Assembly (NCBI GenBank): GCA_045600485.1
Contig: JAZRXX010000084.1
Coordinates: 7,449-71,448, forward strand
Length of the DNA stretch: 64,000 nucleotides
Source: Bacteroidales bacterium
Lineage (GTDB): Bacteria > Bacteroidota > Bacteroidia > Bacteroidales > UBA3663
Reading direction: 5' to 3'
The translations under genes were made by a program, and so were the position numbers. Shown here in pieces: positions 2,327-64,000 of the stretch. The notes below the pieces were generated by a model. That model searched no databases. It worked only from the letters and a program-made list of their open reading frames with translations, and was not told where the DNA came from. Each line of letters opens with the position of its first letter. The stretch's first letter is position 1.

Positions 2327-2351
2327 CGCTTGTTAAGAGACTACAGAATAC

Positions 2352-4433
2352 ATGATATTTGATCTTCAATCTCCATTCAAGCCTATGGGCGACCAGCCCG
2401 AAGCCATCCGTCAACTCACGGAAGGACTAGAACAAGGAACGACCTCAGCACAGACATTGCTGGGCGTTACTGGTTCTGGCAAGACATTCACTATGGCCAA
2501 TGTAATTGCTAATTCTGATCGTCCTACACTTATTCTGAGTCACAACAAAACACTTGCAGCTCAGCTTTATGGAGAGATGAAAGCCTTCTTTCCAAACAAT
2601 GCTGTTGAGTATTTTGTTTCTTACTACGACTACTATCAACCTGAAGCCTATATCCCTAGTACCGACACCTACATCGAAAAGGATTTAGCCATCAATATGG
2701 AGCTCGACCAATTGCGTCTTTCCGCCACAAACGCTCTCCTCTCCGGCCGTCGAGATGTAGTCGTTGTTAGCTCAGTATCCTGTCTCTATGGCATAGGAAA
2801 TCCAGAAGACTTTCATGCCAATATGATTCACATAGAGGTTGGTCAAGAGGTTCTTAGAGACGACCTCTTACGAGCCTTACTAAATGCACAATATACTCGC
2901 AACGATATTGCCCTGCAGCGGGGTAATTTCCAAGTTAAGGGAGAAACTGTAGATGTGTTCCTGGCAGCAACAGATGTCATTGTTCGTATTCATTTTTGCT
3001 TCGATGAGATAGAAGAAATTGAAACTCTTGATGTGATGACTGGACATGTCTTGGCTCGTCACAACGAGTACACCATCTCTCCTGCTCAGATCTTCACCAC
3101 AACCAAGGATCGAATAGACAGTGCAGTCGATGAAATCACACTGGACCTTGGTTCTCAAATTCAATATTTCGAAGAGATTGGAGAACCAGAAAAGGCAGAG
3201 CGAATCAAGGAACGCGTAACCTACGATATTGAGATGATCAAAGAGGTAGGTTATTGTTCTGGAATTGAGAATTACAGTCGTTACTTTGACCGACGAAAAC
3301 CTGGAACTCGACCATTCTGTTTGTTGGACTTTTTTCCAAAAGATTATCTGCTGATCATCGACGAAAGTCACGTCACCATCCCTCAAATTCATGCCATGTC
3401 AGGTGGTGACTTCAAACGAAAATCCACGTTGGTTGACTACGGTTTTCGTCTGCCCGCAGCCATAGATAACCGTCCACTCAAGTTCGAGGAATTCGAAAGT
3501 CTCACGCCAAACACCATCTATGTAAGTGCGACTCCTGCAGATTATGAATTGGAGCGTTGTGAAGGAATCGTGGCTGAGCAGTTGATTCGTCCAACCGGCC
3601 TCCTCGACCCTATAATTGAGGTTCGTCCATCAATGAATCAAATTGATGACTTGATGGAAGAAATTCAAAAAAATATAGAAGCCGACGAACGAACGTTGGT
3701 CACTACGCTAACCAAAAAGATGGCAGAAGAACTCGATGATTATCTTCACAATCATAGCATCCATTCTGCCTATATTCACAGCGATGTTGATACCCTTGAC
3801 CGTGTAAAGTTAATGGATGAACTGCGAGCCGGAAACTTTGATGTACTGGTGGGGGTCAACCTCTTGCGAGAGGGACTTGACTTGCCAGAAGTATCGCTCG
3901 TAGCTATTTTGGATGCAGACAAAGAGGGTTTCCTTCGCAACGAGCGTTCATTGACACAGACGGTAGGTCGTGCCGCTCGCAATGTGCATGGTCGCGCCAT
4001 CATGTATGCTGATAAGATTACAGGATCGATGCAACGAACCATCGAGGAAACCGAACGCCGCCGAATGAAACAGATGCGCTACAATCAGGAGAACGGTATC
4101 GTGCCCAAGCAGATCAAAAAGAAAATCAACACATTGCTCGACAATGAAGAACTCAAGCAGACGCGAGAGCAATTCGCCTATAGGGCACCGGAACTCTCCA
4201 ACAAAACCGCAGCTCCTTCCCTCTCATCTGTCTCATCTGAAAAGCGTGTTGTGGCAGATGCTACAGAGGTTCAGTACCACAGTCTACCATTCCTGGAAGA
4301 AGAAGTTGAACGTACCAAGCAGAAGATGATGGCTGCCGCTAAAGCACTCGACTTCATGGAGGCTGCCCATCTGCGTGACTACATGCTCATGCTGCAAGAA
4401 CGCATCGACAAGATGAAAGAAAACAATTCTTAA
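2352..4433 (+). CDS. uvrB: Excinuclease ABC subunit B
   Basis: 693 aa. It has Walker A GVTGSGKTFT, helicase motifs, and a C-terminal UVR motif (ALDFMEAAHLRDYM). Confidence 0.97.
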   Translation: MIFDLQSPFKPMGDQPEAIRQLTEGLEQGTTSAQTLLGVTGSGKTFTMANVIANSDRPTLILSHNKTLAAQLYGEMKAFFPNNAVEYFVSYYDYYQPEAYIPSTDTYIEKDLAINMELDQLRLSATNALLSGRRDVVVVSSVSCLYGIGNPEDFHANMIHIEVGQEVLRDDLLRALLNAQYTRNDIALQRGNFQVKGETVDVFLAATDVIVRIHFCFDEIEEIETLDVMTGHVLARHNEYTISPAQIFTTTKDRIDSAVDEITLDLGSQIQYFEEIGEPEKAERIKERVTYDIEMIKEVGYCSGIENYSRYFDRRKPGTRPFCLLDFFPKDYLLIIDESHVTIPQIHAMSGGDFKRKSTLVDYGFRLPAAIDNRPLKFEEFESLTPNTIYVSATPADYELERCEGIVAEQLIRPTGLLDPIIEVRPSMNQIDDLMEEIQKNIEADERTLVTTLTKKMAEELDDYLHNHSIHSAYIHSDVDTLDRVKLMDELRAGNFDVLVGVNLLREGLDLPEVSLVAILDADKEGFLRNERSLTQTVGRAARNVHGRAIMYADKITGSMQRTIEETERRRMKQMRYNQENGIVPKQIKKKINTLLDNEELKQTREQFAYRAPELSNKTAAPSLSSVSSEKRVVADATEVQYHSLPFLEEEVERTKQKMMAAAKALDFMEAAHLRDYMLMLQERIDKMKENNS

Positions 4434-12061: not shown

Positions 12062-13237
12062 TTACGAGAACATGTTCTTGACTTTCTGGCGGAACTTATC
12101 GAACAAAGAGGGTGAAGTACCAAAATTCTTGCGAGTTTTGAGATCTGTCAGAATCTTCTTCTCTTCTTCATCAAGGTGCTCTGGCACATAAACACCGATA
12201 TTGACAATCATATCGCCCTTTCGTCCACTGCGACCATAAGGGTCAAGTGTTGGCACACCTTTACCTTGAAGACGCATCTGTGTGTTTGGTTGTGTACCTG
12301 GAGCAATCTTGATGGTAGTTGTTCCTTCCACCAATGGAATCTCAACTTCTCCACCCAATGCAGCAGTCGGGAAATCAAGCAAAAGTGAATATATCAAAGT
12401 ATCATCTTGACGAATAAATTGATTCTGATGCTCCTCTTCAATCAATACAAACAAATCGCCTTTAGCGCCACCATGACGACCAGCATTTCCGTAACCGGAC
12501 ATATTGAGCTGCATACCCTCTGCTACACCTGCAGGAATCTTGATGGTTACAGTCTCCTCGCCCATTACGACACCCTCGCCATTACAATGCTGGCAACGAG
12601 TTTTTATCTTTTTGCCAGTTCCCTGACAATCTGGACATACAGCTTCGCTTTGAGCAATACCGAAAATGGTTCGAACTTGTTTCATAACACGTCCAAGACC
12701 ATGGCATTTCGGGCAAGTTTCATACTCTGTCCCATCTTTGGCACCAGTTCCATTACAATGTGAACAAGCAACATATTTCTTCAGTTTTAGATGCTTCTCG
12801 ACTCCATTTTGAACATCAGCCAAGGATACTTTGACACGAACACGTATATTCGATCCTCGATTAACAGTCGTATCATCATCATCTCCACCAAAAGAGAAAC
12901 TAAAACTAGAACCATTTCCTCCAGCACCACCGCCAAAAAAGGAATTGAAAATATCAAAAGGATTGAATCCAGAACCTCCACCTCCGAAGCCGGCACCAGG
13001 GTCGTTGAAACCAAACTGGTCGTAACGAGCACGTTTTTGAGAATCGCTCAACACTTCGTATGCCTCGGCACACTGTTTGAAGTTGTCTTCTGCCTCTTTC
13101 TTCTCGGCATCGGATTTGCCATTCTGTCTATCTGGATGATATTTAACAGCTAATTTTCGATATGCTTTTTTAATTTCTTCATCACTGGCATTTTTGTCAA
13201 CGCCAAGCACTTCATAATAATCTCTTTTCTCTGCCAT
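12062..13237 (-). CDS. dnaJ: Molecular chaperone DnaJ
   Basis: It has a J-domain HPD (KYHPDRQ), a G/F-rich linker, and four CxxCxGxG repeats ([32 protein letters not shown]). Confidence 0.95.
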
Positions 13238-54793: not shown

Positions 54794-54867
54794 GGTTCCG
54801 TAGCTTAGCTGAATAGAGCGTCAGATTCCGGTTCTGAAGGTCGTGGGTTTGAATCCCACCGGAATCA
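54794..54867 (+). tRNA. tRNA-Arg (anticodon CCG)
   Basis: I folded the cloverleaf by hand. The acceptor stem is GGTTCCG/CGGAATC, the D stem GCTT/GAGC, and the anticodon stem TCAGA/TCTGA with loop TTCCGGT (anticodon CCG). The T arm is GTGGG-TTTGAAT-CCCAC and the discriminator is A. No CCA is encoded. Confidence 0.9.
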
Positions 54868-54873
54868 CTACCA

Positions 54874-54907
54874 AAACTGTCGTTTTTCGGAACGGCAGTT
54901 TGTTTTT
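54874..54907 (+). terminator. Intrinsic terminator after tRNA-Arg
   Basis: AAACTGTCG-tttttcggaa-CGGCAGTTT forms 9 bp including one G-T pair. It is followed by GTTTTT. Confidence 0.6.
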
Positions 54908-55075
54908 CAAGGCAGTCCGATGCCTCACGCATCATTATAAGATGCTCATTTTTACTAATTTACACTTTTGTCAATTCTATAAGCTTGGTTACAATTAATA
55001 TTTAACCTGCTTGCAGAATTGATTTTTCTGTTATAATGGTTTGGACATGCCTGGACAATCCCCAAAAACAGGGTT

Positions 55076-55120
55076 TGCTCTACATGCTCTACAAATCTCA
55101 TTAATTTTGCTCTACAAATC
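55076..55120. repeat. Direct repeats TGCTCTACA(AATC) x3 between tRNA-Arg and the integrase
   Basis: The copies start at 55076 (9 nt), 55085 (13 nt) and 55108 (13 nt). Confidence 0.85.
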
Positions 55121-55211
55121 AAAGTAGGCAAAAATGAGGGAATTCGTCCAAATCCATTAATGAGGACTGACAGAGGAAACAAGATGCTGGCGCAAACGTA
55201 ATTCAAAAAAA

Positions 55212-56420
55212 ATGAAAAAGAATTTCGTTACCCCTGTGTTCAACCGTAGAAAGGATCTTGAGAAGAAAGGTTTTAGCAAGGTCGAGTTATTAATCTGTCT
55301 GACACGTAAAGACAAAAAGTACATCTCTATCAAAGAGTGCAATCAGAAGGAATGGGATTTATATCAGCATAGCTCAGAACTGAGAGCACAAGTAGCACTC
55401 TACAATGACATCGTCAACAAGATGTATGACCGCAATGAAGAGATGACCGTTGCCAACTTCAACGAGCGCATTGGTATCAAGGATCGGAAGTCAGAGAAGA
55501 AGGAAATGGAGAAACGCATATTCTCCCCTACCAGTTTCATCGACTTCATGCGCGAGGAACTTGCCAAAGAGAAGATTGTTGAAGGCACACGCAAGCATAC
55601 GAAAGGCGCCATCGATGCCATTGAGGAGTTTGGCAGACTGAACAGGTTTGCCGATCTCACCCCGAAGAATGTAAAGGCATTCGATGAAGCCATGAGATCA
55701 GTGGTAACTTCGAAGGGCAAGGTCAGAACTGATACCACCGTTGACAACTATCACAAGGTGCTGAAGAAGTATGCCCGACTTGCCTACGAATATGACTACA
55801 TCGAGAAGAATCCTTACGAGCATCCAATGTGTCACTTCAAGAAAGGCGAGTGCGCAGAACGTCAGCCTCTCAATGAAGCAGAACTGAAGAAACTCATCTC
55901 GATGCAGTTTATCTGCAATAAGAAGGAAACAGCCCGAGACCTCTTCATCTTCAGTGCCTACACAGGACTTGCCTACATTGATGCACAAAGCTTCGACTTC
56001 GAGAACATGACCGAGAAGATCGGAGATACATATTATATAGATGGCGCGCGCGTAAAGACAGGACAGGCATTCTTCACTCCGATATTGCCTCCTGCCATGG
56101 AGATTCTGAAGAAGTACGACTACAATCTTCCGAAGATCTCCAATCAGAAGCTTAACGATTATCTGCATCTGGTGCAGTCCGAGGCAAATATAACCAAAAA
56201 CATGACGAGCCACGTTGCGAGACATTCCTTCGCTACCCTTCTCATCTCATATGGTGTACCTATCGAGAATGTTGCGAAGATGATGGGACACGCAGAGATC
56301 AAGACCACGCAGATGTATGCCAAGGTCATGAAAGAGACCGTCGATAAGTTCACTCAGAACCTCCTTCGCGAGATGACTCCTCAGAAGAAAAAAGTAGGAA
56401 GACCCAAGAAGACTGCCTAA
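55212..56420 (+). CDS. Tyrosine-type site-specific integrase (Bacteroidetes IntDOT-like family)
   Basis: 402 aa. It has HxxR (HVARHSFATLL) and a catalytic Tyr (TTQMYAKV). Box I reads AYTGLAY, with Ala where the canonical Arg I sits and an Arg 12 residues upstream, as I recall for IntDOT. It lies 345 nt downstream of the tRNA-Arg. Confidence 0.9.
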   Translation: MKKNFVTPVFNRRKDLEKKGFSKVELLICLTRKDKKYISIKECNQKEWDLYQHSSELRAQVALYNDIVNKMYDRNEEMTVANFNERIGIKDRKSEKKEMEKRIFSPTSFIDFMREELAKEKIVEGTRKHTKGAIDAIEEFGRLNRFADLTPKNVKAFDEAMRSVVTSKGKVRTDTTVDNYHKVLKKYARLAYEYDYIEKNPYEHPMCHFKKGECAERQPLNEAELKKLISMQFICNKKETARDLFIFSAYTGLAYIDAQSFDFENMTEKIGDTYYIDGARVKTGQAFFTPILPPAMEILKKYDYNLPKISNQKLNDYLHLVQSEANITKNMTSHVARHSFATLLISYGVPIENVAKMMGHAEIKTTQMYAKVMKETVDKFTQNLLREMTPQKKKVGRPKKTA

Positions 56421-58204
56421 TCAATACGAATATCTGACATGCGATAAGCTGTCATCTTCAATAACTGCTGCATTCCAGATTCGGTGAATGTGGCGGTTAT
56501 TTTTTCTGCCAGGTACTTCTTTCCATGGATGTAGAAGATACTGTGAACGTCGGGAATAGTATCAGACAGGAAGGAGAAAGTATATTTGACAGAAGCGTCC
56601 ACCTCATGCTGCGTCTGGCGGTAATTAAAAGCCTCTTTGCTCGTCAGACGGAGATTATAAGGGTTATACTTACTGGTATTATCTGGCAGCACCTCAACAC
56701 TATCCACAAAGGGATGCGGAGCAGATGGATAGTAGTAGAAAATGTTATCTGGCCAGAATGCGACATAGAGCTTATCAAAGAACTCCTCTCGCTTAGAATC
56801 TCCATTGTTGATGATATTCACAGAAATGGTCTGGTTCTCGTCAGAATCAGCACCTGTATCGTCGCCCAGGTCGCCACAATCCACGAAAATCATATCACCC
56901 AAAGCAAGGGTTGTCTCATCAATACAAGCTGGCACAATCTTCATTTCACGCACCTCTGCATCCTTATAGTCAGGATGAATACGCGGACCGAAATTATTGA
57001 TCACCTGAAGGCGTTGCACATGGACAGTCTGCTTCTTGCTATTCTGATAGGTACGCATAGCCCGGATTACAAAGTAGGTATCATCAGGAGTGCAATAATG
57101 AATGCACTTATAGTAACTGCTATCAAAGGTACCGACTTTTTCAAGATATGGTTGGAGGGTGGTTCTCATCGTATAGAGGTTGTTCCATCTTACGATATTC
57201 ATCTTCGAGAACACCCATGGACAGGAATAGAACTTTGCCAACTGGTGACCACCGTCGGCATAGGCCAGGTTCTGCTGTTCAAAGAAAGTGTTTTGAGCCT
57301 CCTCCTTGTCCGTAATCTCCACCTTATGCGAGTCAATCACCTTGTCAATGGACACGACAGGCGAAGTAGCCAGACGCGACGCATTGAAAGAGAACTTGAT
57401 GGATCGAGCCTGGTCGTCCACCACGAACTCACCGCCGAGGAAGCACTCCACCTCGTCGAGGAACTCCGTAATAGTCCAATGAGGAAGGACGGCGTTACGG
57501 GCAGGGATATTCCAAGCGGCAGGAAGAGCGTTGCAGATGATCAAATACTTCCAATAGGAGTTTTCAATAGCCGAAATGTCATAGCGATAGTCCGTGGCAT
57601 CAAGGATACGTTTGAGTATGTCGAGGAAGAAAGGTTGACCGACGAGCGTTGACTGATATCTATCCCAGATGTAGTCTCTGCCAGGATCCATCGCATGAAG
57701 GGGGTTCTGAATGTTGCCTGACGTGTTATTCACCCAAGGAAGGCAGACAAAACCGAAGTAGTCAAAATCGCGTTTGGCACGATCCAACTGACTCTCATAG
57801 GAAGCCAGATAGTAACGCGGCTCCTCCGTCGCCTTTACCTGCACCGACGGCATAGGTATCTCATTGATGTATGTCTTATCGAGAGGCGTGGCGAAGTTGC
57901 GGACAGAACGCCCCTGCAGAAACTGCGTCTTCACCTCCAGCTCATTGATCTCGACGATATTCACTGAGCCCACAGCGTGAAAGTTGCGGTCATGAATCTC
58001 GCAATCGAGCAGCAAGGTATTGAGGTCAGCATCCTTTCGGTCAATATATCCGAAGATGTCACGGTTCTGGGGACATCCCTTCAGAGGAAAGGTGATGCTG
58101 AGCGTATAGGCATCAGCACCCGTAAAGAAAGAGTTCTCAGAGATGAAATCGAAAGAGACGCCCTTCTTCAGGGCAGCCTCCTTTCCGTTGATTAGAATGG
58201 TCAT
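56417..58204 (-). CDS. Phage-associated hypothetical protein (position suggests a distal tail/baseplate role)
   Basis: 595 aa, immediately downstream of the tape-measure gene on the same strand. It contains no motif I recognise. The 375-aa antisense ORF has an antisense-like composition. Confidence 0.6.
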   Translation of the reverse strand: MTILINGKEAALKKGVSFDFISENSFFTGADAYTLSITFPLKGCPQNRDIFGYIDRKDADLNTLLLDCEIHDRNFHAVGSVNIVEINELEVKTQFLQGRSVRNFATPLDKTYINEIPMPSVQVKATEEPRYYLASYESQLDRAKRDFDYFGFVCLPWVNNTSGNIQNPLHAMDPGRDYIWDRYQSTLVGQPFFLDILKRILDATDYRYDISAIENSYWKYLIICNALPAAWNIPARNAVLPHWTITEFLDEVECFLGGEFVVDDQARSIKFSFNASRLATSPVVSIDKVIDSHKVEITDKEEAQNTFFEQQNLAYADGGHQLAKFYSCPWVFSKMNIVRWNNLYTMRTTLQPYLEKVGTFDSSYYKCIHYCTPDDTYFVIRAMRTYQNSKKQTVHVQRLQVINNFGPRIHPDYKDAEVREMKIVPACIDETTLALGDMIFVDCGDLGDDTGADSDENQTISVNIINNGDSKREEFFDKLYVAFWPDNIFYYYPSAPHPFVDSVEVLPDNTSKYNPYNLRLTSKEAFNYRQTQHEVDASVKYTFSFLSDTIPDVHSIFYIHGKKYLAEKITATFTESGMQQLLKMTAYRMSDIRID

Positions 58205-58207
58205 GGT

Positions 58208-58242
58208 TAATTGATAATGGACAATGGATAATTGATAATTTA
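58208..58242. repeat. Heptanucleotide tandem tract (TAATKGA)n inside the phage-like element
   Basis: TAATTGA TAATGGA CAATGGA TAATTGA TAATTTA. It fills the gap between the TMP stop (58240-42) and the ATG of the 595-aa gene (58204). Confidence 0.85.
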
Positions 58243-61200
58243 CCTTCTGTACTTAGGTGTTTTGTTACGGATCAATCTGTCATACTCGTCCTGCGCCTGC
58301 TTCATACCTGTGTCGCCAGTGACAGAGTTCACTGTGATGAAAGGTTCATCAAGACGCTGCTTGAGAGAGGTCAGAACTTCAGCAAGCTCCTTGCCCGATG
58401 GAGATGCTTCGGGAACAGTGGCATTGTTTTCGATGATGACTCGCTGGGGTGCCTGAGACTGGGCAGACTGAGCGAGGACTGCAGGAGCCGTGATAGAGCG
58501 AGACACATCTTCGGAACTGATATTTCCGATGGTGTTCGTGCGTTGGGCGTAATCCAGTGCCTCAATCAATGGGCGTGTGCGAGGGTTCTTGGTAAGACTC
58601 TGAGAAGCGACCCATTCCCCGGCATGGACTACACCAGCAATCTCATCCACGGCTCCGTCCTTCGTAAAACCACCTTTCGAATAGCCCTGTGCCTCTGATG
58701 CCTGTTGCTGCTTCTTGATAGCTGCCACCTGCATCGCACCGGCTGCTATTGCCATGCCAGCTGCTATTGGTGCCAGGATATAACCGACCATAGGCACGGC
58801 AGCGGCAGAAGAATAGGCATTGATGGCGGCAGAAGCGGTCTGAGCGACGGCCTGAATCACCTGCATGGCGAACATCTTACGGTTCGACTCCTTCTTCGCC
58901 TTGGCAATCTCAGCCTCCTTCTGCTTTTCGAGACGCTTAACCTTGAAATTGTTACCCTCGGCCAGAGAGATCTCGCGGTCGTAGCGACGTTCGATATTGG
59001 AGGTCTGGATTTGTAACTCAGCCTGCAAGATGGTAGTCATCTGCTGGAAGATAGAAGCCATGCCGGACACGAGGGTATCAATGGAACCTGAAATAGCACT
59101 GCCCAGATCAGAGTCCAGGAACTCGATAACAGAATCGTTCCACTTTTCGAAGAAGTTCATATTCTCGTCGGCACCCTCGATGTTGTACTTACGCATCAGA
59201 GCCAGACGAGCCTTCTGAAAAGCCTCCTCAATGCGGAGTTTCTCCTTTGCATTGTCGCCAGCAGCTGCAAGTTCAGCATTATAGACCTCCTTCAGAAGTG
59301 CCATATCTGCGTCGAACTTAGCCTGCCGTTCCTGCGGATTATCCCCGAAATACGAGGCTTTCATCTTGGCGAGTTGATCCTGGTGCTTCTTCTCAGCCGC
59401 CTCATACTCCTTCTGATGCTTGCGCTGGTTGGCAAGCAACTTGTCCTGCAGTTGCTTCTCAGTGTTCAGCCGTTCCTTTGAGCCCTCTTCCTGTAGGTTC
59501 TTGAGGTTGTTCAGATGGGTAATATCCAGTTGCTCGATAGCCTCCTCATAGACCTCATACGTCATTTCAGAGTCGATGAACTTCTGCTTCAGTACCGCCA
59601 TCTGCTCGTTGTAGGATGCGTTCTCTTCCTCAACCGTCTGCTTGTGGGCAGCGTCGGACTGTTTCTTCAGGGCCTCGTAGTAACTTGCCTCGATAGTCAG
59701 GCGTTCCGTAGCGGTCAGATCAGTATGCTTCAGCTTCTTCTGGTTGAACTCGATTTCAATCTCATTCATCCGTTGCGTATAGGCCAGGTATGACTTCTCG
59801 CCCTTAGCGTAAGCGATTCGGTTCAGAGCATCCTCGCGCTCCTTCCATTCCTTTTCGGCAGCGAACTTATTCTTCGGATCTTCTGCGTTTGGATCAAAAT
59901 CCGGGTCAGAGTTATCTTCAACGACAGCCGCTTGTTTGATAGCAGCCTTTTGCAGGTCCTTACCATAGACCTCCATAATCTGCTTTTCAAGCGCCTCCTG
60001 TTCCCGCAGCTGCTTGTCGATGGCATCAATCTCTGCTTGCTTCTTCTCGATGGCAGCGTCCCATGAAGCATTGGCCGTATCATAGATGTAGCCCAAATCC
60101 GTGTCCACAGCAGAGCGACCATGACCTGTAGCCTGTTGCGGCTTTTTCTTATTCGCATCTATCTCCTTTGCTGCCTTTTCCTCCAGTTCAGATTTCTCCT
60201 TCTGCTTGGTGTTCATCTCCAGATTGAGGTCGGTTTTAGCCTTGCCGATAGCCTTCAGTTTGTCCTCGGCGCCCTCAATCTCATACTTTCGGACCAGTGA
60301 ATTGATGTACTCGTCCAGAGCAACCTTATTCTCCACATACTTACCCGAGGTTTCATCGAGGTAAGCATTGTAATCCGGAATGATGCCGTTGAGACGTTCG
60401 ATGGCAGCTTTCCTCTCGTCGAGAGTCAGATTCTCATTCATGGCAGCGTCGCGGAGAAGATTGAGCTGAAGACGCTCTTCCTCCATCTGCTTCGTTGCCT
60501 CTGCCTTGATGCCTTTCATCTCCTTTTCGATCTTCTGTTCCTGTGTGAGTTCCTTCTCATACTGGATCAGATAGACGATGACGGCAGCAATAGCCGCAGC
60601 GATCAAGCCCCAGAGATTCGCTTTCTGAGCAGAGTTCAGGGCGCGTTGAGCAGCAGCTGCACGTTCGAGATTGCCAGTCAGCTTATTGTAGGCGACAGAG
60701 CAATAGAGAACAGCCGTTCGATAGGTAGCCATCACGGCAGCACCCGCTTTGTGAGCAGCCTGGGTGAGCGTCACCCAAGCGTAGTGAGCCTTAAAAGCGA
60801 GGTTGCTGGCATTGATAGCCACCTTATAAGCAACGAGAGCAGCAGTACCCGAAATGATCTCCTTGTGGTACTTGATGACAAAATCAACTACCAAAGAGAG
60901 GAAACGGAGGGTCAGCGAAGTGGAAGAATAGACATGGCGCATGATTGGGAGCAGTTTTTCACCCAATTCAACAGAGAGCTCGGCAATGCGTTTCTTCGCC
61001 TTGTCGAGACCAGCCTGCACCGTATTGTTGAAAATCTCATACTCATGGGAAGCAGACGAAGCCTCCTTGAAGGCCTTGTTAGCCTCCTCCTGTTCCCACT
61101 TCACCATGTCAAGATGCTCGGCAAGCGTAGCGAGGACCTGGGACATGCGGACACCGTCCATTCCCAAGTCCTTGAACAGCGGAGCGAGGACAGCCAGACC

Positions 61201-62364
61201 GTCCTTGCTGCCGAGTTGCTGAATACGCTCCAAGAACATGATCAGACCATCATTCGTGCTGGTCTTCAGCACCTCCGTAAACTTCTCCACATCGAGGCCA
61301 ACCTGGGCGGCAACCTCACCTGGCTTCTGGAAGAGCATCATGGTCAGTTTGCCGAGGGCAGACGCGGACATCTCCGTCTTCTGGCCGTTAGCGTCGAGAG
61401 TAGCGCCGAAAGCCAGCAGCTGCGGAATCGTCAGATCGGCCTGAGCGCCTACACCAGCCATGCGTTGCGTAAACTCCACCAAGTATTGCTTGGATGCAGT
61501 ACAGTTCTGCGAGAGGACGTTGACAGCAGAACCAACGCTGAGCATGGCGTCGCGCGTACCCATATCCTTCTCCACGCCGAAGATGTTCGAGAGTTTAGCG
61601 ATGGTCTGAGTGGCACCGTTACCGAGGTCGACAAGCGCCACATTGATGATGTCAGCAGCTTCAACGTAGCCCTTGACGTCCTCAATCGTGTTCTTACCGA
61701 GACGACCTGCTTCCTGAGCAAGTTCGTTGAGTTGAGCACGGGAAGAACGGGTGCTCATGTTCTTGAAAGCAGTATTCAGTTCTTCCACTTCGTCCACCGT
61801 CAGACCTGTGTATTTGCGTGTGTTGGCCAGTTCCTCATCCATCTCAGCATAGGCATTGACGGCAGAACGACCAGCCATGACAAGACCGGTCACGGCAGCA
61901 GCAGCCCCCATGATGGTAGTCTGCCAGTCATTCATCACGCGATTGAAGCGAGTCCAGAAGGATTCAGTATCTCTCAGGTGCATATTCACCGCCTGGATCT
62001 CAGCCTTCACCATCTTGATCTTGGCACAATGGGCATCCCAGGCAGGAGTCCCACGTTCAATAAGATCGAGTTGCTTATTGAGCGTTGCGAGGGTCTTCTG
62101 CAATTCCTTAGGGGTTGCCTTATCAAGATGGCGCATCACATTCTCCACCTGTTGGGTAGCAGATTCAATTTCACGGATTTGGCGTTTCGTGTCGGTCAGT
62201 TCCCGACGGAGGCGCTTCAAATCCGTCTTATTACCAGCGGCAGCAGCCTTAGCGATGGCGCTTTCCAGGTTCAGAGCATTTGCACGAAGTTTCTGCAAAG
62301 TCTCTTCCGCTTGCTGACCGTTCACATTCAGGGTGACGGTCGCTTTAGTATTGAGTTCACTCAT
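58240..62364 (-). CDS. Phage tail tape-measure protein
   Basis: About 1,374 aa from ATG 62364 (MSELNTKATVTL). It has long coiled coils, internal TM-like hydrophobic segments and a TMP-core-like region (ELANTRKYTGLTVDEVEEL...MAGVGAQADLTIPQLLAFGATLDANGQ). A conserved C-terminal GYSKGGFTKDG...AGVVHAGEWVAS motif is also present. The track start 62469 would include the promoter box. Confidence 0.85.
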   Translation of the reverse strand: MSELNTKATVTLNVNGQQAEETLQKLRANALNLESAIAKAAAAGNKTDLKRLRRELTDTKRQIREIESATQQVENVMRHLDKATPKELQKTLATLNKQLDLIERGTPAWDAHCAKIKMVKAEIQAVNMHLRDTESFWTRFNRVMNDWQTTIMGAAAAVTGLVMAGRSAVNAYAEMDEELANTRKYTGLTVDEVEELNTAFKNMSTRSSRAQLNELAQEAGRLGKNTIEDVKGYVEAADIINVALVDLGNGATQTIAKLSNIFGVEKDMGTRDAMLSVGSAVNVLSQNCTASKQYLVEFTQRMAGVGAQADLTIPQLLAFGATLDANGQKTEMSASALGKLTMMLFQKPGEVAAQVGLDVEKFTEVLKTSTNDGLIMFLERIQQLGSKDGLAVLAPLFKDLGMDGVRMSQVLATLAEHLDMVKWEQEEANKAFKEASSASHEYEIFNNTVQAGLDKAKKRIAELSVELGEKLLPIMRHVYSSTSLTLRFLSLVVDFVIKYHKEIISGTAALVAYKVAINASNLAFKAHYAWVTLTQAAHKAGAAVMATYRTAVLYCSVAYNKLTGNLERAAAAQRALNSAQKANLWGLIAAAIAAVIVYLIQYEKELTQEQKIEKEMKGIKAEATKQMEEERLQLNLLRDAAMNENLTLDERKAAIERLNGIIPDYNAYLDETSGKYVENKVALDEYINSLVRKYEIEGAEDKLKAIGKAKTDLNLEMNTKQKEKSELEEKAAKEIDANKKKPQQATGHGRSAVDTDLGYIYDTANASWDAAIEKKQAEIDAIDKQLREQEALEKQIMEVYGKDLQKAAIKQAAVVEDNSDPDFDPNAEDPKNKFAAEKEWKEREDALNRIAYAKGEKSYLAYTQRMNEIEIEFNQKKLKHTDLTATERLTIEASYYEALKKQSDAAHKQTVEEENASYNEQMAVLKQKFIDSEMTYEVYEEAIEQLDITHLNNLKNLQEEGSKERLNTEKQLQDKLLANQRKHQKEYEAAEKKHQDQLAKMKASYFGDNPQERQAKFDADMALLKEVYNAELAAAGDNAKEKLRIEEAFQKARLALMRKYNIEGADENMNFFEKWNDSVIEFLDSDLGSAISGSIDTLVSGMASIFQQMTTILQAELQIQTSNIERRYDREISLAEGNNFKVKRLEKQKEAEIAKAKKESNRKMFAMQVIQAVAQTASAAINAYSSAAAVPMVGYILAPIAAGMAIAAGAMQVAAIKKQQQASEAQGYSKGGFTKDGAVDEIAGVVHAGEWVASQSLTKNPRTRPLIEALDYAQRTNTIGNISSEDVSRSITAPAVLAQSAQSQAPQRVIIENNATVPEASPSGKELAEVLTSLKQRLDEPFITVNSVTGDTGMKQAQDEYDRLIRNKTPKYRR

Positions 62365-62384
62365 AGACAAATCATTTTTGTGCG

Positions 62385-62392
62385 CAAAAATA
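62385..62392 (-). promoter_or_regulatory. Bacteroidetes-type -7 box TAnnTTTG directly upstream of the tape-measure gene
   Basis: The minus strand reads TATTTTTG, 20 nt upstream of ATG 62364 and downstream of the 62475-62502 terminator. Confidence 0.5.
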
Positions 62393-62474
62393 CCGCTAAA
62401 AAACAGAGTCCGAAAAGACGTGCAGACAGCACTTTCATATCGACTTTTAGAAAGATTTGAAATTTTCAAGGACT

Positions 62475-62502
62475 CAAAAAGAAAACACGCTGAATATCAG
62501 CG
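62475..62502 (-). terminator. Intrinsic terminator candidate (minus strand)
   Basis: The minus strand reads CGCTGA-TAT-TCAGCG followed by TGTTTTCTTTTTG. It is preceded by an 11-12 bp hairpin (TCGAGGGGAAAA-GTA-TTTTCCCTTCG, about 62510-62536). It lies about 85 nt upstream of the TMP promoter box. Confidence 0.55.
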
Positions 62503-62682
62503 CAAAGGGGTCGAGGGGAAAAGTATTTTCCCTTCGTTTCCGCGAGAGCAGCCCCCGACCGCCCTGCGTAATAGGCACTTTGAAAATTTGAAAATCGTTG
62601 CGGAATATGTAAGGGAGTTTCGCAAAAATCGTTGTTCTACGCGCTTGCCGCTGAAATTTTGCCGCAAAGGTCGCGCTTCGCT

Positions 62683-62878
62683 GATGATGGAGAGAGTTTC
62701 GGGATTTCGACCGATGGAGAGGGTTTCGCTTCTGCTGACGATGGGGAGAGTTTCTGCATTTTGACCGATGGCAAAGGGTTTCGCTTTTGCTGACGATGGG
62801 GAGGGTTTCGGGATTTTGACCGATGGCAAAGGGTTTCGCTTCTACTGATGATGGAGAGGGTTTCGCTTTGCGATGACC
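62683..62878. repeat. Seven tandem degenerate 27/28-bp repeats
   Basis: The GATGG unit starts at 62686, 62713, 62740, 62767, 62795, 62822 and 62850. The consensus is GATGG-RGAG-GGTTTCG-(5-6 variable)-TTGAC(C). Two subtypes alternate (..GGGATTTTGACC and ..CTTCTGCTGAC), giving a super-period of about 55 bp. Confidence 0.9.
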
Positions 62879-62914
62879 GCCAACCGCTAACGCGCGGTGG
62901 AAGGCTTGCCTACG

Positions 62915-63008
62915 AAAAAGAAAAAAGGGCGGTAAAAGCAAGTATGAAGATGTTTTGCGTGCAATACCTATGGATTTGCATCCGAAATTTCTTCATTCTT
63001 GCTCGCCC
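62915..63008 (-). terminator. Long interrupted hairpin plus T-run (minus strand)
   Basis: Three helices stack: GGGCG(62927-31)/CGCCC(63004-08), GCAAG(62938-42)/CTTGC(62998-63002) and ATGAAGA(62944-50)/TCTTCAT(62990-96). On the minus strand the hairpin is followed by TTTTTTCTTTTT (62915-62926). Confidence 0.55.
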
Positions 63009-63147
63009 TGCGGATAAAGAATACTATTCGACGGATCTGCTTGTTGTGCGGCACGAAAGGGCAAGTGACGTAGGAACCTGCTTTTCATGCCAGCACATAA
63101 AAGGAAGATACGACGATTTGTATTCTATCCTGATGCCTTGGCATTAT

Positions 63148-63205
63148 GAGGTGGAACCTTGACTGAGGATTAGTGAAACCAAGACGAAGTGAAGAGGTGG
63201 AACCT
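63148..63205. repeat. 12-bp perfect direct repeat GAGGTGGAACCT x2 (46-bp spacing)
   Basis: The copies are at 63148-63159 and 63194-63205. A third GGAACCT is at 63073-63079. Confidence 0.85.
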
Positions 63206-63688
63206 GAGTAGGCAATGCCTGACATAGCCGAAGGCTTTAGGGAGAGAAAGGAGGACAATGCAGATGCGCGGTAGAGAACGGAATGGAGAGAACAGAAGCA
63301 TAGGGAGGGCAACAGCATAAGTGGACTCGTGTGGCGGACGCCCGCCACACATAAAGGAAGCCGTAGGAATGTGGAGGACACCTATGCTATTGCCAGACCG
63401 GTGAGCCGTATGTCGGTGTGGCAGAACAGAGTGCCATGCTCTTGCGAAGGAAAAAGGCATCATCTATTCGCTGCTATAGGAACGGAATATAGAGCCTGGT
63501 GTTCAGGCGTAGATGGAAGGTACTGGAATGAATGGAGAGCCGATGCAGTGATTTGTTGATGCCCCGTAGCAACAGCATAGCACTCCTGCCACACGGACAT
63601 CGGGCAATGCGCTATTCTCATAATGGAGGGCGTAACTGTGTGCAGATGCGTGTCCTCCTTTCTGGGTGGGTGGGGCTAGCGTAAGCTT

Positions 63689-63853
63689 ATGGCGTAAGCA
63701 AAAGGGCGCTGAAGGCGCGAGTGTGCAAAGCAAATGGGCTAAGACGAAGAGCAAAAAAGAAAGAGAGGATCCTGTCAAGGGTCCTCTCTGGAGTGATGAT
63801 TATGGCGAAGCGATAAGGCGCAGAAGGCGCGAATGGTGCGAAGCAGATGGACT
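63689..63853. repeat. Direct repeat pair of about 52 nt flanking the 63753-63789 hairpin
   Basis: The copies are ATGGCGTAAGCAAAAGGGCGCTGAAGGCGCGAGTGTGCAAAGCAAATGGGCT (63689-63740) and ATGGCGAAGCGATAAGGCGCAGAAGGCGCGAATGGTGCGAAGCAGATGGACT (63802-63853). Confidence 0.8.
63753..63789 (-). terminator. Intrinsic terminator candidate (minus strand)
   Basis: The minus strand reads AGAGAGGACCC-TTGACA-GGATCCTCTCT (8 bp, one mismatch, then 2 bp) followed by TTCTTTTTTGC. Confidence 0.6.
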
Positions 63854-64000
63854 TTAGTGATGTGCGAATGCAGAAAAGAGCGAATGCTGAAGGGTGCCGC
63901 TGCCGGCACTTGACAATGGCAATGGCTGCTATGTTTTTCGTAGAAATCATAGTAGCGATTGCTGAAAAGAGATAGGCAGAAAGATTACTTCCTACTATGT

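Follow-up and report, generated by a model that had tools for sequence, protein, structure and literature searches.

A structured noncoding RNA element conserved at the boundary of late-gene blocks and variable cargo in Bacteroidales prophages

We identified a noncoding element, structured on the sense strand and widely conserved, at the boundary of late-gene blocks and variable cargo in prophages of the Bacteroidales. Its local copy lies on the minus strand of a 64,000-nucleotide stretch of a Bacteroidales genome (contig JAZRXX010000084.1, positions 7,449 to 71,448; hereafter the window, whose own numbering is used throughout), within a region free of recognisable open reading frames (ORFs) at 62365-64000, directly upstream of the tape-measure protein (TMP) gene of a prophage. 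Metatranscriptomes contain RNA from the corresponding regions of related prophages. A preliminary description of this DNA had reported three minus-strand intrinsic terminators here (T1, T2 and T3) and took them to delimit two ORF-less transcription units. Our tentative reading, to which we give a little less than an even chance, is that the region is a transcribed but untranslated leader with multiple terminators which gates or insulates transcription into the TMP operon, acting in cis either to control elongation or to insulate. We infer the transcript starts, the transcript ends and any antitermination factor of such a leader.

The TMP was used as a query against genomes, viral contigs and metagenomes, which gave 108 loci with homologues (42-70% protein identity, mostly from rumen and gut Prevotellaceae/Bacteroidales), and about 230 related loci were compared overall. 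Alignment at the DNA level with the TMP-family loci was limited to 62445-62568 of the window. The conserved motif consists, in order, of the box CATATTCCGC, a spacer of about 33-36 nt and the box AGGGCGGnnGGGG, plus covarying helices, and the following parts of it were located in the window:

62600..62609, minus strand: invariant box CATATTCCGC, unchanged in 49/49 aligned loci
62486..62566, minus strand: structured RNA motif, -36.8 kcal/mol
62552-62566, minus strand: G-run of the motif, CAGGGCGGTCGGGGG
62540-62551, minus strand: helix P2 of the motif
62516-62532, minus strand: helix P3 of the motif
62507-62518, minus strand: C-run of the motif, the 3' strand of helix P1
62488-62502, minus strand: helix P4 of the motif, which is the T3 stem
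62579..62594, minus strand: palindrome-like TTTTCAAATTTTCAAA, the upstream operator-like copy, which inverted repeats I6 and I7 pair with 62457-62469
62457..62469, minus strand: palindrome TTGAAAATTTCAA, conserved in the closest subgroup

In the alignments the second invariant box reads CAGGGCG(G/C)..GGGGG and starts about 44-46 nt from the start of CATATTCCGC. The small helices that follow the boxes differ in sequence among subgroups, with their complementarity preserved. At 62552-62609 of the window we found both boxes at a spacing within the defining range of 28-42 nt, sense-strand covarying helices and a single copy per element. A covariance model (R1), built from 13 sequences and run on 80 sources, matched 41 of the 80, each locus once and never on any strand but the TMP-sense one, and the window scored 106 bits. 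On the R1 alignment paired cells amount to 87.6%, against 74.5 +/- 0.9 in shuffles, both sides have changed in 18 of 25 pairs (11/11 of P3 and 6/6 of P4), and the covariation score is 0.40, against at most 0.13 with slid partners and reached by 0/500 shuffles, all of these being counts that lean towards structure because the alignment was fitted to the R1 model. G-U cells outnumber A-C cells by 83 to 20, and the fold therefore belongs to the sense strand, as for RNA. The T3 signal is part of this motif: the helix P4 is conserved, and in some lineages, including that of this prophage, it takes the form of a classic terminator. The T-runs that give T2 and T3 their classic look in the window are partly lineage-specific, with at least six T in the 10 nt after P4 in only 14 of 30 distinct P4 versions. 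Operator-like palindromes often fill the spacer between the boxes and recur nearby, as TTGAAAATTTCAA in the window and as GGCAATTGCC in other phage groups. Two copies of the TTGAAAATTTCAA type flank the RNA motif, with GGCAATTGCC at equivalent places elsewhere, and these look like group-specific operator sites.

Upstream of the motif, T2 turned out to be one copy of a family-wide module in which a long hairpin is followed by (T)TTACCGCnCAT, usually (T/C)TTACCGCnCAT. In the window this module is represented by:

62927..63013, minus strand: composite T2 hairpin, 87 nt, -31.1 kcal/mol, z -5.2, bearing TTTACCGCCC (62927-62936) on its 3' side
62915..62926, minus strand: T2 T-run TTTTTTCTTTTT, found in this lineage only

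Across loci, the 1.2 kb upstream of CATATTCCGC contain 64 sense-strand occurrences of the heptamer TTACCGC, about 19 times background, and 5 antisense ones. A stable hairpin (-12 kcal/mol or better) ends within 4 nt of the heptamer in 55 of the 67 distinct instances, and the 75 nt upstream of it fold at a mean of -26.9 kcal/mol, compared with -16.7 kcal/mol when shuffled. The variable base of the module covaries with a small downstream hairpin (CGCCC..GGGCG, CGCAC..GTGCG or GCTCAAT..ATTGAGC). T2 itself is closed by an outer GGGCG/CGCCC stem that abuts the T-run, in place of which other family members have nCAT(T/C)G, then a small hairpin that covaries. The first module of some relatives comes directly after the lysin gene and carries a TTTTT run, and therefore looks like the terminator of the lysin operon.

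Between the T2 module and the boxes lies a tandem repeat array:

62674..62868, minus strand: tandem array, period 55 = 27 + 28, about 3.5 copies, core GAAAC(C/T)CT..CCATC (TRF)

According to Tandem Repeats Finder, such an array ends 50-190 nt upstream of CATATTCCGC in most non-redundant loci, with periods of 27/55 (window), 39, 57, 76-78, 91, 100, 110-114 and 160 nt and with 2 to 11 copies. The units cannot be aligned overall; they share a short core, GAGACC or GAAACC, followed by ...GCC(T)TTTCGG, and the last core stands about 7 nt before TACATATTCCGC. Copy number varies even among near-identical copies of the prophage (a 26-nt deletion and a 108-nt skip). In loci that have no array, TTACCGC is just 1-25 nt from CATATTCCGC, so the array is an expansion inside one composite element. 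A CRISPR array was rejected since both the 27- and the 28-nt half-units repeat and there are hence no unique spacers, and a coding-repeat reading of the array was rejected on structure.

We also found the element beyond the relatives of this TMP. The pattern CATATTCCGC-N28-42-AGGGCGNNNGGGG, with CATATTCCGC as the anchor of a genome-wide scan, matches at least 119 species-level genomes, nearly all of them Bacteroidales; the matches listed include Prevotella, Xylanibacter, Phocaeicola, Bacteroides, Muribaculaceae, Paludibacteraceae and Alloprevotella. The handful of matches in other phyla likely reflect chance or mis-binning. Among the matches listed, the motif follows a lysin gene and precedes a TMP gene, at a distance of 270-730 nt, in about 45 loci. 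In about 28 of the loci listed, a conserved 535-aa gene precedes the motif by 50-250 nt (occasionally by up to 3 kb), and cargo genes such as RadC come after it. In one locus (L236) the motif stands between a terminase-like gene and a TMP gene. The 535-aa protein, preceded by a 207-aa protein (L155 847-2454, L206 and about 28 others, many of them Bacteroides/Phocaeicola elements), has a P-loop-like GRGxGKG and a C-terminal D-x-x-D-A, motifs of the kind seen in large terminases. The P-loop-like motif and the position suggest a terminase-like protein, which is a candidate identity only; sequence searches of Pfam, PHROGs and PDB gave no match to the protein and did not confirm a terminase.

A further possibility is that the element works as DNA, either as a cos/pac site with terminase-binding repeats or as an iteron- and hairpin-bearing origin of replication. 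In favour of this, each element has a single copy, the tandem repeats share the short core GAGACC or GAAACC, the motif stands 50-250 nt downstream of the terminase-like gene (of unconfirmed identity) in about 28 loci, and one box is G-rich, as are many cohesive ends. Nevertheless, we consider a DNA-level site improbable, since the covarying helices belong to one strand and contain many G-U pairs, which points to RNA, since the searches above did not confirm the 535-aa protein as a terminase, since no replication gene is adjacent and since the repeat periods are out of helical phase.

The region 62365-64000 is noncoding, as the preliminary description had held for the interval between its terminators. 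No ORF in it has a Pfam match, and tblastx of the region against the 108 related loci gave no match. Near-identical metagenomic copies from the gut (X1-X20, 90-97% identical) differ by indels of 1, 2, 26, 32, 40 and 76 nt, which disrupt every ORF of 90 aa or more, and no ORF in 62365-64000 survives. The TMP gene, in contrast, shows substitutions at three-base spacing. Three-frame translations are of low complexity and rich in pyrimidine codons, and the minus strand over most of 62640-64000 consists of 31-35% C and 16-21% G, compared with 25% and 27% in the TMP gene. It is very improbable that a coding sequence has gone unrecognised here, whether as small proteins, with recoded stops or as a gene tail entering from beyond 64000. 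Several ORFs of 90-155 aa exist, and one frame is open from the window edge at 64000 to about 63692, so the tail of a gene from beyond 64000 is conceivable; that frame crosses T1, however, and is broken by the 76- and 32-nt indels in relatives. The lack of family matches, the character of the translations and the indels in close relatives that wreck all such ORFs speak against coding, as do tandem periods of 55, 76, 91 and 100 nt, which are not multiples of three.

The three hairpin-plus-T-run signals were recovered where the preliminary description had placed them, with stable folds and a terminator-like form on the minus strand only. In addition to T2, they comprise:

63762..63789, minus strand: T1 hairpin, 10 pairs and 1 mismatch, loop UUGACA, -15 kcal/mol, z -3.0
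63751..63761, minus strand: T1 T-run TTCTTTTTTGC, directly abutting the T1 hairpin
62488..62502, minus strand: T3 stem CGCTGA-TAT-TCAGCG, -9.3 kcal/mol, z -4.1, then TGTTTTCTTTTT
62470..62487, minus strand: T3 T-run, overlapping the conserved block TTTTTGAGTCC

Like intrinsic terminators, T1, T2 and T3 each combine a stable, G+C-containing hairpin with a U-tract directly 3' of the stem on the gene-sense strand. They differ from ordinary terminators in that T2 and T3 form part of larger structures, conserved, covarying and flanked by invariant boxes, in that the T-runs of these two are not kept across the family, and in that three terminators follow one another with no coding sequence between them. 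A consensus scan of 58000-64000 gave 7 terminator-like sites, compared with 5.0 +/- 2.6 in shuffles, and detected only T3 of the three signals; the clustering is therefore not statistically exceptional. A second, stricter scan was too permissive to be informative. The T1 hairpin is retained in the near-identical metagenomic copies, with loose ends, and has no counterpart in the 108 related loci. The T-rich run at T1 is kept in relatives, and the next 76 nt (63676-63751) are absent from X1, X2, X3, X8 and X19. Other close relatives lack only a 32-nt part (63696-63727) of this segment. Direct repeats at 63696-63723 and 63808-63835 lie on both sides of T1, which suggests a local duplication.

The distal part of the region, between T1 and T2, is different in kind. 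It contains two large folds:

63245..63663, minus strand: nested-helix domain, closed by a 13/13 helix (63245-63257 with 63651-63663), inverted repeats I3, I4, I5 and I8
63018..63126, minus strand: long imperfect hairpin with 31-nt arms, 109 nt, -40.3 kcal/mol, z -6.6

For 62900-63800, the minus strand folds with a z score of -12.5 and the plus strand with one of -12.0. The sequence of T1 and of the nested domain is specific to this lineage, and blastn and tblastx found no homologue of 62640-64000 in the 108 related loci. There is no second copy of the nested-domain sequence within the 64-kb window, and a miniature inverted-repeat transposable element or other multicopy repeat was rejected on this ground; an exact 19-mer from the domain had no viral match and matched genomes only by chance. 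What recurs in relatives is the extreme stability, which arises there from unrelated long hairpins: 300-nt windows upstream of arrays reach z of -6.6 or below in 9 of 11 other loci, mostly -8 to -14. In close relatives, 12 of the 29 variable sites fall in predicted pairs compared with 55% of positions being paired, so that pairs are somewhat depleted of change, and none of the changes is a compensatory double one. At the tip of the nested domain (63520), 40 nt are inserted in one relative. Two strong complementary pairs between 63373-63428 and 63566-63612 are ordered X Y ... X' Y', a crossing order from which mutually exclusive pairings or a pseudoknot follow.

Another reading is a passive insulator or spacer, in which terminators would end the lysis and cargo transcripts, the rest would be fast-evolving filler of a hypervariable moron slot and the boxes would be operator DNA of the TMP promoter. 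We regard this as rather unlikely. In its favour, both the length and the content of the slot between lysin and TMP are hypervariable, the related loci have no homologue of 62640-64000, operator-like palindromes flank the motif and the number of terminators is not above chance. However, RNA-type covariation biased towards G-U is unexpected for DNA operators, phages with a gene other than that of a TMP downstream still keep the invariant boxes, and the extreme fold stability (z -8 to -14) recurs upstream of arrays in unrelated sequences.

Promoter-like sequence was found only next to the TMP gene, where the preliminary description had noted a host-type -7 box:

62385..62419, minus strand: promoter-like element, GTCTTTT, 19 nt, then TATTTTTG (Bacteroidetes -7 box), a single match in the window against 0.03 expected
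58240..62364, minus strand: tape-measure protein gene, 1374 aa, Pfam PhageMin_Tail, E 8e-17

The box TATTTTTG (62385-62392) stands 20 nt before the TMP ATG at 62364 and, together with GTCTTTT, is conserved across the family; the earlier observation holds, and the match is unique in the window. GTCTTTT-N17-21-TAnnTTTG recurs two to three times per prophage before other gene blocks (L028 at about 3525 and 5977, L001 at about 2877 and 5830, and others) and looks like a phage-specific class of promoter with an unusual -33 region. No TAnnTTTG box occurs on either strand of 62420-64000, and in 12 loci no sense-strand TAnnTTTG was found within 2 kb upstream of the motif, save the TMP-proximal one. 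Since no -7 box precedes the motif, transcription most likely enters from upstream. The two self-contained units that the preliminary description had drawn between its terminators are not upheld, as there are no recognisable promoters between the terminators and T2 and T3 lie within one composite locus.

Evidence for RNA comes from assembled metatranscriptome contigs, which carry no direction and were taken from runs picked for holding the sequence. In the window, one 374-nt contig from one metatranscriptome covers 62934-63306 at a depth like that of the rest of the prophage, and this single, low-depth, undirected contig ends at 62934, 3 nt past the inner stem of T2. In relatives, the array of L018 is present in six metatranscriptomes at a depth similar to that of the patchily covered phage genes. 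Within the TMP gene of L018, a low-complexity stretch of the GAAGAAGA type (12365-12412) draws many unrelated metatranscriptome contigs and is to be disregarded for coverage. In L155, 0.9 kb of noncoding sequence (2365-3300) has near-continuous cover in four metatranscriptomes in which the flanking genes are mostly absent, and this is the strongest indication we have that such RNAs exceed the neighbouring mRNAs in abundance or stability, although it is no more than a hint.

The L155 locus brings in the chief alternative to a leader, namely that the region yields one or more stable noncoding RNAs (ncRNAs) acting in trans. The motif with P4, and its larger versions closed by a G-run and a C-run, would then be an RNA gene product, made from a non-canonical promoter of its own or processed from a longer transcript, that serves as a repeat-built protein sponge or decoy, an anti-defence RNA or an assembly cofactor. 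We think this possible, on balance doubtful. The coverage of L155 without its neighbouring genes would fit it. In addition, a predicted pairing of the G-run of L155 with a C-run about 300 nt further downstream encloses several hairpins and has a U-run behind it, so that the motif is the 5' part of folds of very different size, and this closure has the shape of a discrete structured RNA. The identity of the motif is also kept in differing gene neighbourhoods, and the rapid change of array copy number and period is as expected of sponge or decoy repeats. On the other hand, there is no recognisable promoter, the contigs are undirected and from runs picked for holding the sequence, no partner protein was found, and the orientation is always that of the flanking late genes, which also fits a cis element. 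A more specific form of the idea, which appears unlikely, is a new, size-variable class of ncRNA in many Bacteroidales prophages, with a 5' G-run and a 3' C-run around 2 to more than 10 hairpins and with TTACCGC modules and arrays before it, acting in trans, for example as a decoy or sponge against a host defence or regulator, or else as an RNA cofactor of tail assembly in phages that have no recognisable tape-measure chaperone genes.

As for the ncRNA genes of the preliminary description, the noncoding sequence, the conserved RNA-type structure of T2 and T3 and the presence of RNA agree with it, whereas independent units are unsupported. The stacked attenuation or antitermination leader that it had offered as an alternative fits better than two ncRNA units, its role being something that we infer. 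We favour a leader because hairpin-box modules and terminators follow one another without promoters between them, because the architecture parallels that of Bacteroides opsX and of the terminated late leader of lambda, and because boxes that are invariant across phages of many host genera argue for a conserved factor.

Under the leader model, 62365-64000 on the minus strand would be a transcribed, untranslated inter-operon region of a Prevotellaceae prophage. Its proximal part (62470-63013) represents, in this prophage, the composite RNA element that is conserved among prophages of the Bacteroidales, comprising in order a long hairpin with TTTACCGCnCAT (T2), an expanding and contracting array, the boxes CATATTCCGC and AGGGCGGnnGGGG, and a multi-helix fold that ends in the T3 hairpin; its distal part (T1, the nested-helix domain and the 109-nt hairpin) is a fast-evolving, lineage-specific RNA with a very stable predicted fold. 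Polymerase arriving from the upstream lysis or cargo genes would meet a series of pause- or terminator-type hairpins, in which most transcripts may end by default to give short, stable leader RNAs. The TMP operon, equipped with a conserved promoter-like element of its own, would be shielded by this series. The invariant boxes may be recognition sites for a conserved elongation factor of host or phage that chooses between termination and read-through, by a mechanism perhaps akin to processive antitermination of the ops/UpxY or Q/put type.

Several results weigh against such a leader. The TMP need not rely on read-through because a promoter-like element lies between T3 and its ATG, and the motif is not specifically a TMP leader because about 28 loci have it after the terminase-like gene and before cargo. 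About half of the P4 versions have no T-run directly after the stem. No compensatory double change was seen among the 29 variable sites of the nested domain, at which close relatives show few substitutions. The RNA evidence carries a selection bias, since runs were picked for holding the sequence. A phmmer search with two E. coli queries found no NusG/RfaH-like ORF in the fetched loci, which cover about 10-20 kb per prophage; the factor may be one of the host. The motif boxes differ from both ops consensus sequences, and the resemblance to ops is partial, with the variable positions including the T read by RfaH.

Among the closest parallels are the antitermination leaders of the enterobacterial RfaH/ops (JUMPstart) and Bacteroides UpxY/opsX systems. 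The ops sequence is GGCGGTAG, which the G-rich box GGCGGT of the motif resembles. These systems share with the element a leader that is transcribed but not translated, a stable hairpin abutting a short conserved box with CCGC or YGCG at its start, and terminators downstream. In B. fragilis, opsX lies in an untranslated leader and consists of a pause hairpin with YGCGNAGCR immediately behind it, and opsA reads ...ccaaaCCGCGTAGCGCA (PMC11685472). A hairpin of this kind lies directly upstream of the box at 55 of 67 TTACCGC instances here. TTACCGCnCAT, CATATTCCGC and AGGGCGGnnGGGG resemble the consensus box (GGCGGTAGnnTG, or YGCGNAGCR in Bacteroides) only in part, and phmmer found no cognate NusG-family paralogue in the element or its operon in the partial prophages searched. 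The element also differs in having several modules and a tandem array and in not standing right after a recognisable promoter.

With the PR'-qut-tR' region of lambda (6S RNA) and put of HK022, the element shares a short, stable, terminated leader RNA before phage late genes, structured RNA that could act on polymerase, and a place next to lysis and structural genes. The differences are that no Q-like gene or promoter-proximal pause element was identified here, that the downstream TMP operon has a promoter-like element of its own, and that there is no sequence or Rfam similarity. The array recalls those of type III toxin-antitoxin systems (ToxI, and pseudo-ToxI of phage PhiTE) in being made of short, tandem, noncoding phage repeats whose copy number varies among close relatives. 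However, no ToxN/AbiQ-like gene follows it, its periods are heterogeneous (27 to 160 nt) and it is always flanked by the same conserved boxes; such a system was rejected for the window, in which the gene after the array and its terminator-like hairpin is the TMP gene and not one for a toxin endoribonuclease.

Like GOLLD, ROOL and Flavo-1, the element belongs to prophage-borne, ORF-free regions with extreme predicted structure. Against Rfam 15 (including GOLLD, ROOL, JUMPstart, Flavo-1 and riboswitches), only tRNA passed the threshold in the window and 12 relatives, and at E values up to 10 nothing meaningful was found in 62300-64000. One sub-threshold match to Flavo-1 (RF01705, 30.7 against 42 bits) lies near the L206 motif (2336-2423, minus strand), between the 535-aa gene and the motif and on the opposite strand. 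No similar sequence was found in deposited phage genomes, and a text search for the box sequences returned unrelated primers only. The element family and its modular build therefore appear to be undescribed, while phage noncoding leaders and ncRNAs are already known as a kind.

Bacteroidales prophages are among the most abundant mobile elements of gut and rumen microbiomes, and to our knowledge essentially nothing is known of their late-gene regulation. That prophages of Prevotella, Bacteroides, Phocaeicola, Muribaculaceae and Paludibacteraceae all carry this invariant, covarying RNA points to a common factor, of host or phage, that acts on it. The element thus offers a handle on the control of transcription elongation in Bacteroidales phages, a marker for annotating this group of prophages and a candidate for a new RNA family in Rfam. 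In addition, RNA structure fills the usual position of the tail-chaperone genes across a whole phage lineage.

The window is a Bacteroidales (Prevotellaceae-like) chromosome that carries a prophage integrated beside tRNA-Arg(CCG) at 54794-54868. On the minus strand at this end of the prophage, the ORF-free region is followed by the TMP gene and a 595-aa gene (56417-58204), beyond which a tyrosine integrase gene (55212-56420) lies on the plus strand. Look-ups of proteins identical to the TMP or to the 595-aa protein gave no match. The layout common to relatives is a TMP gene, a gene of about 599 aa, an oppositely oriented integrase gene and a tRNA gene. On the upstream side of the TMP, relatives have a holin and an amidase lysin and then a stretch of variable length and content. 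No pair of genes resembling tail-assembly chaperones precedes the TMP gene anywhere in the family (window and L001-L108), so that their absence, first remarked on for this prophage, is true of the whole family, with holin, amidase lysin and variable cargo in their place. The cargo between lysin and TMP includes ArdC-like, MutS_I-domain and AAA_14/DUF4143 genes, as well as an oppositely oriented polymerase-like gene. At 62361-62375, the end of an upstream ORF of four codons (ATG ATT TGT CTA TGA) overlaps the TMP start (TATGA), which may be due to chance or to translational coupling. The tRNA-Arg(CCG) and tyrosine integrase genes (54794-56420) mark the attachment end of the prophage, and relatives of like layout adjoin tRNA-Lys, tRNA-Arg(TCT), tRNA-Asp, tRNA-Ser or tRNA-Thr genes.

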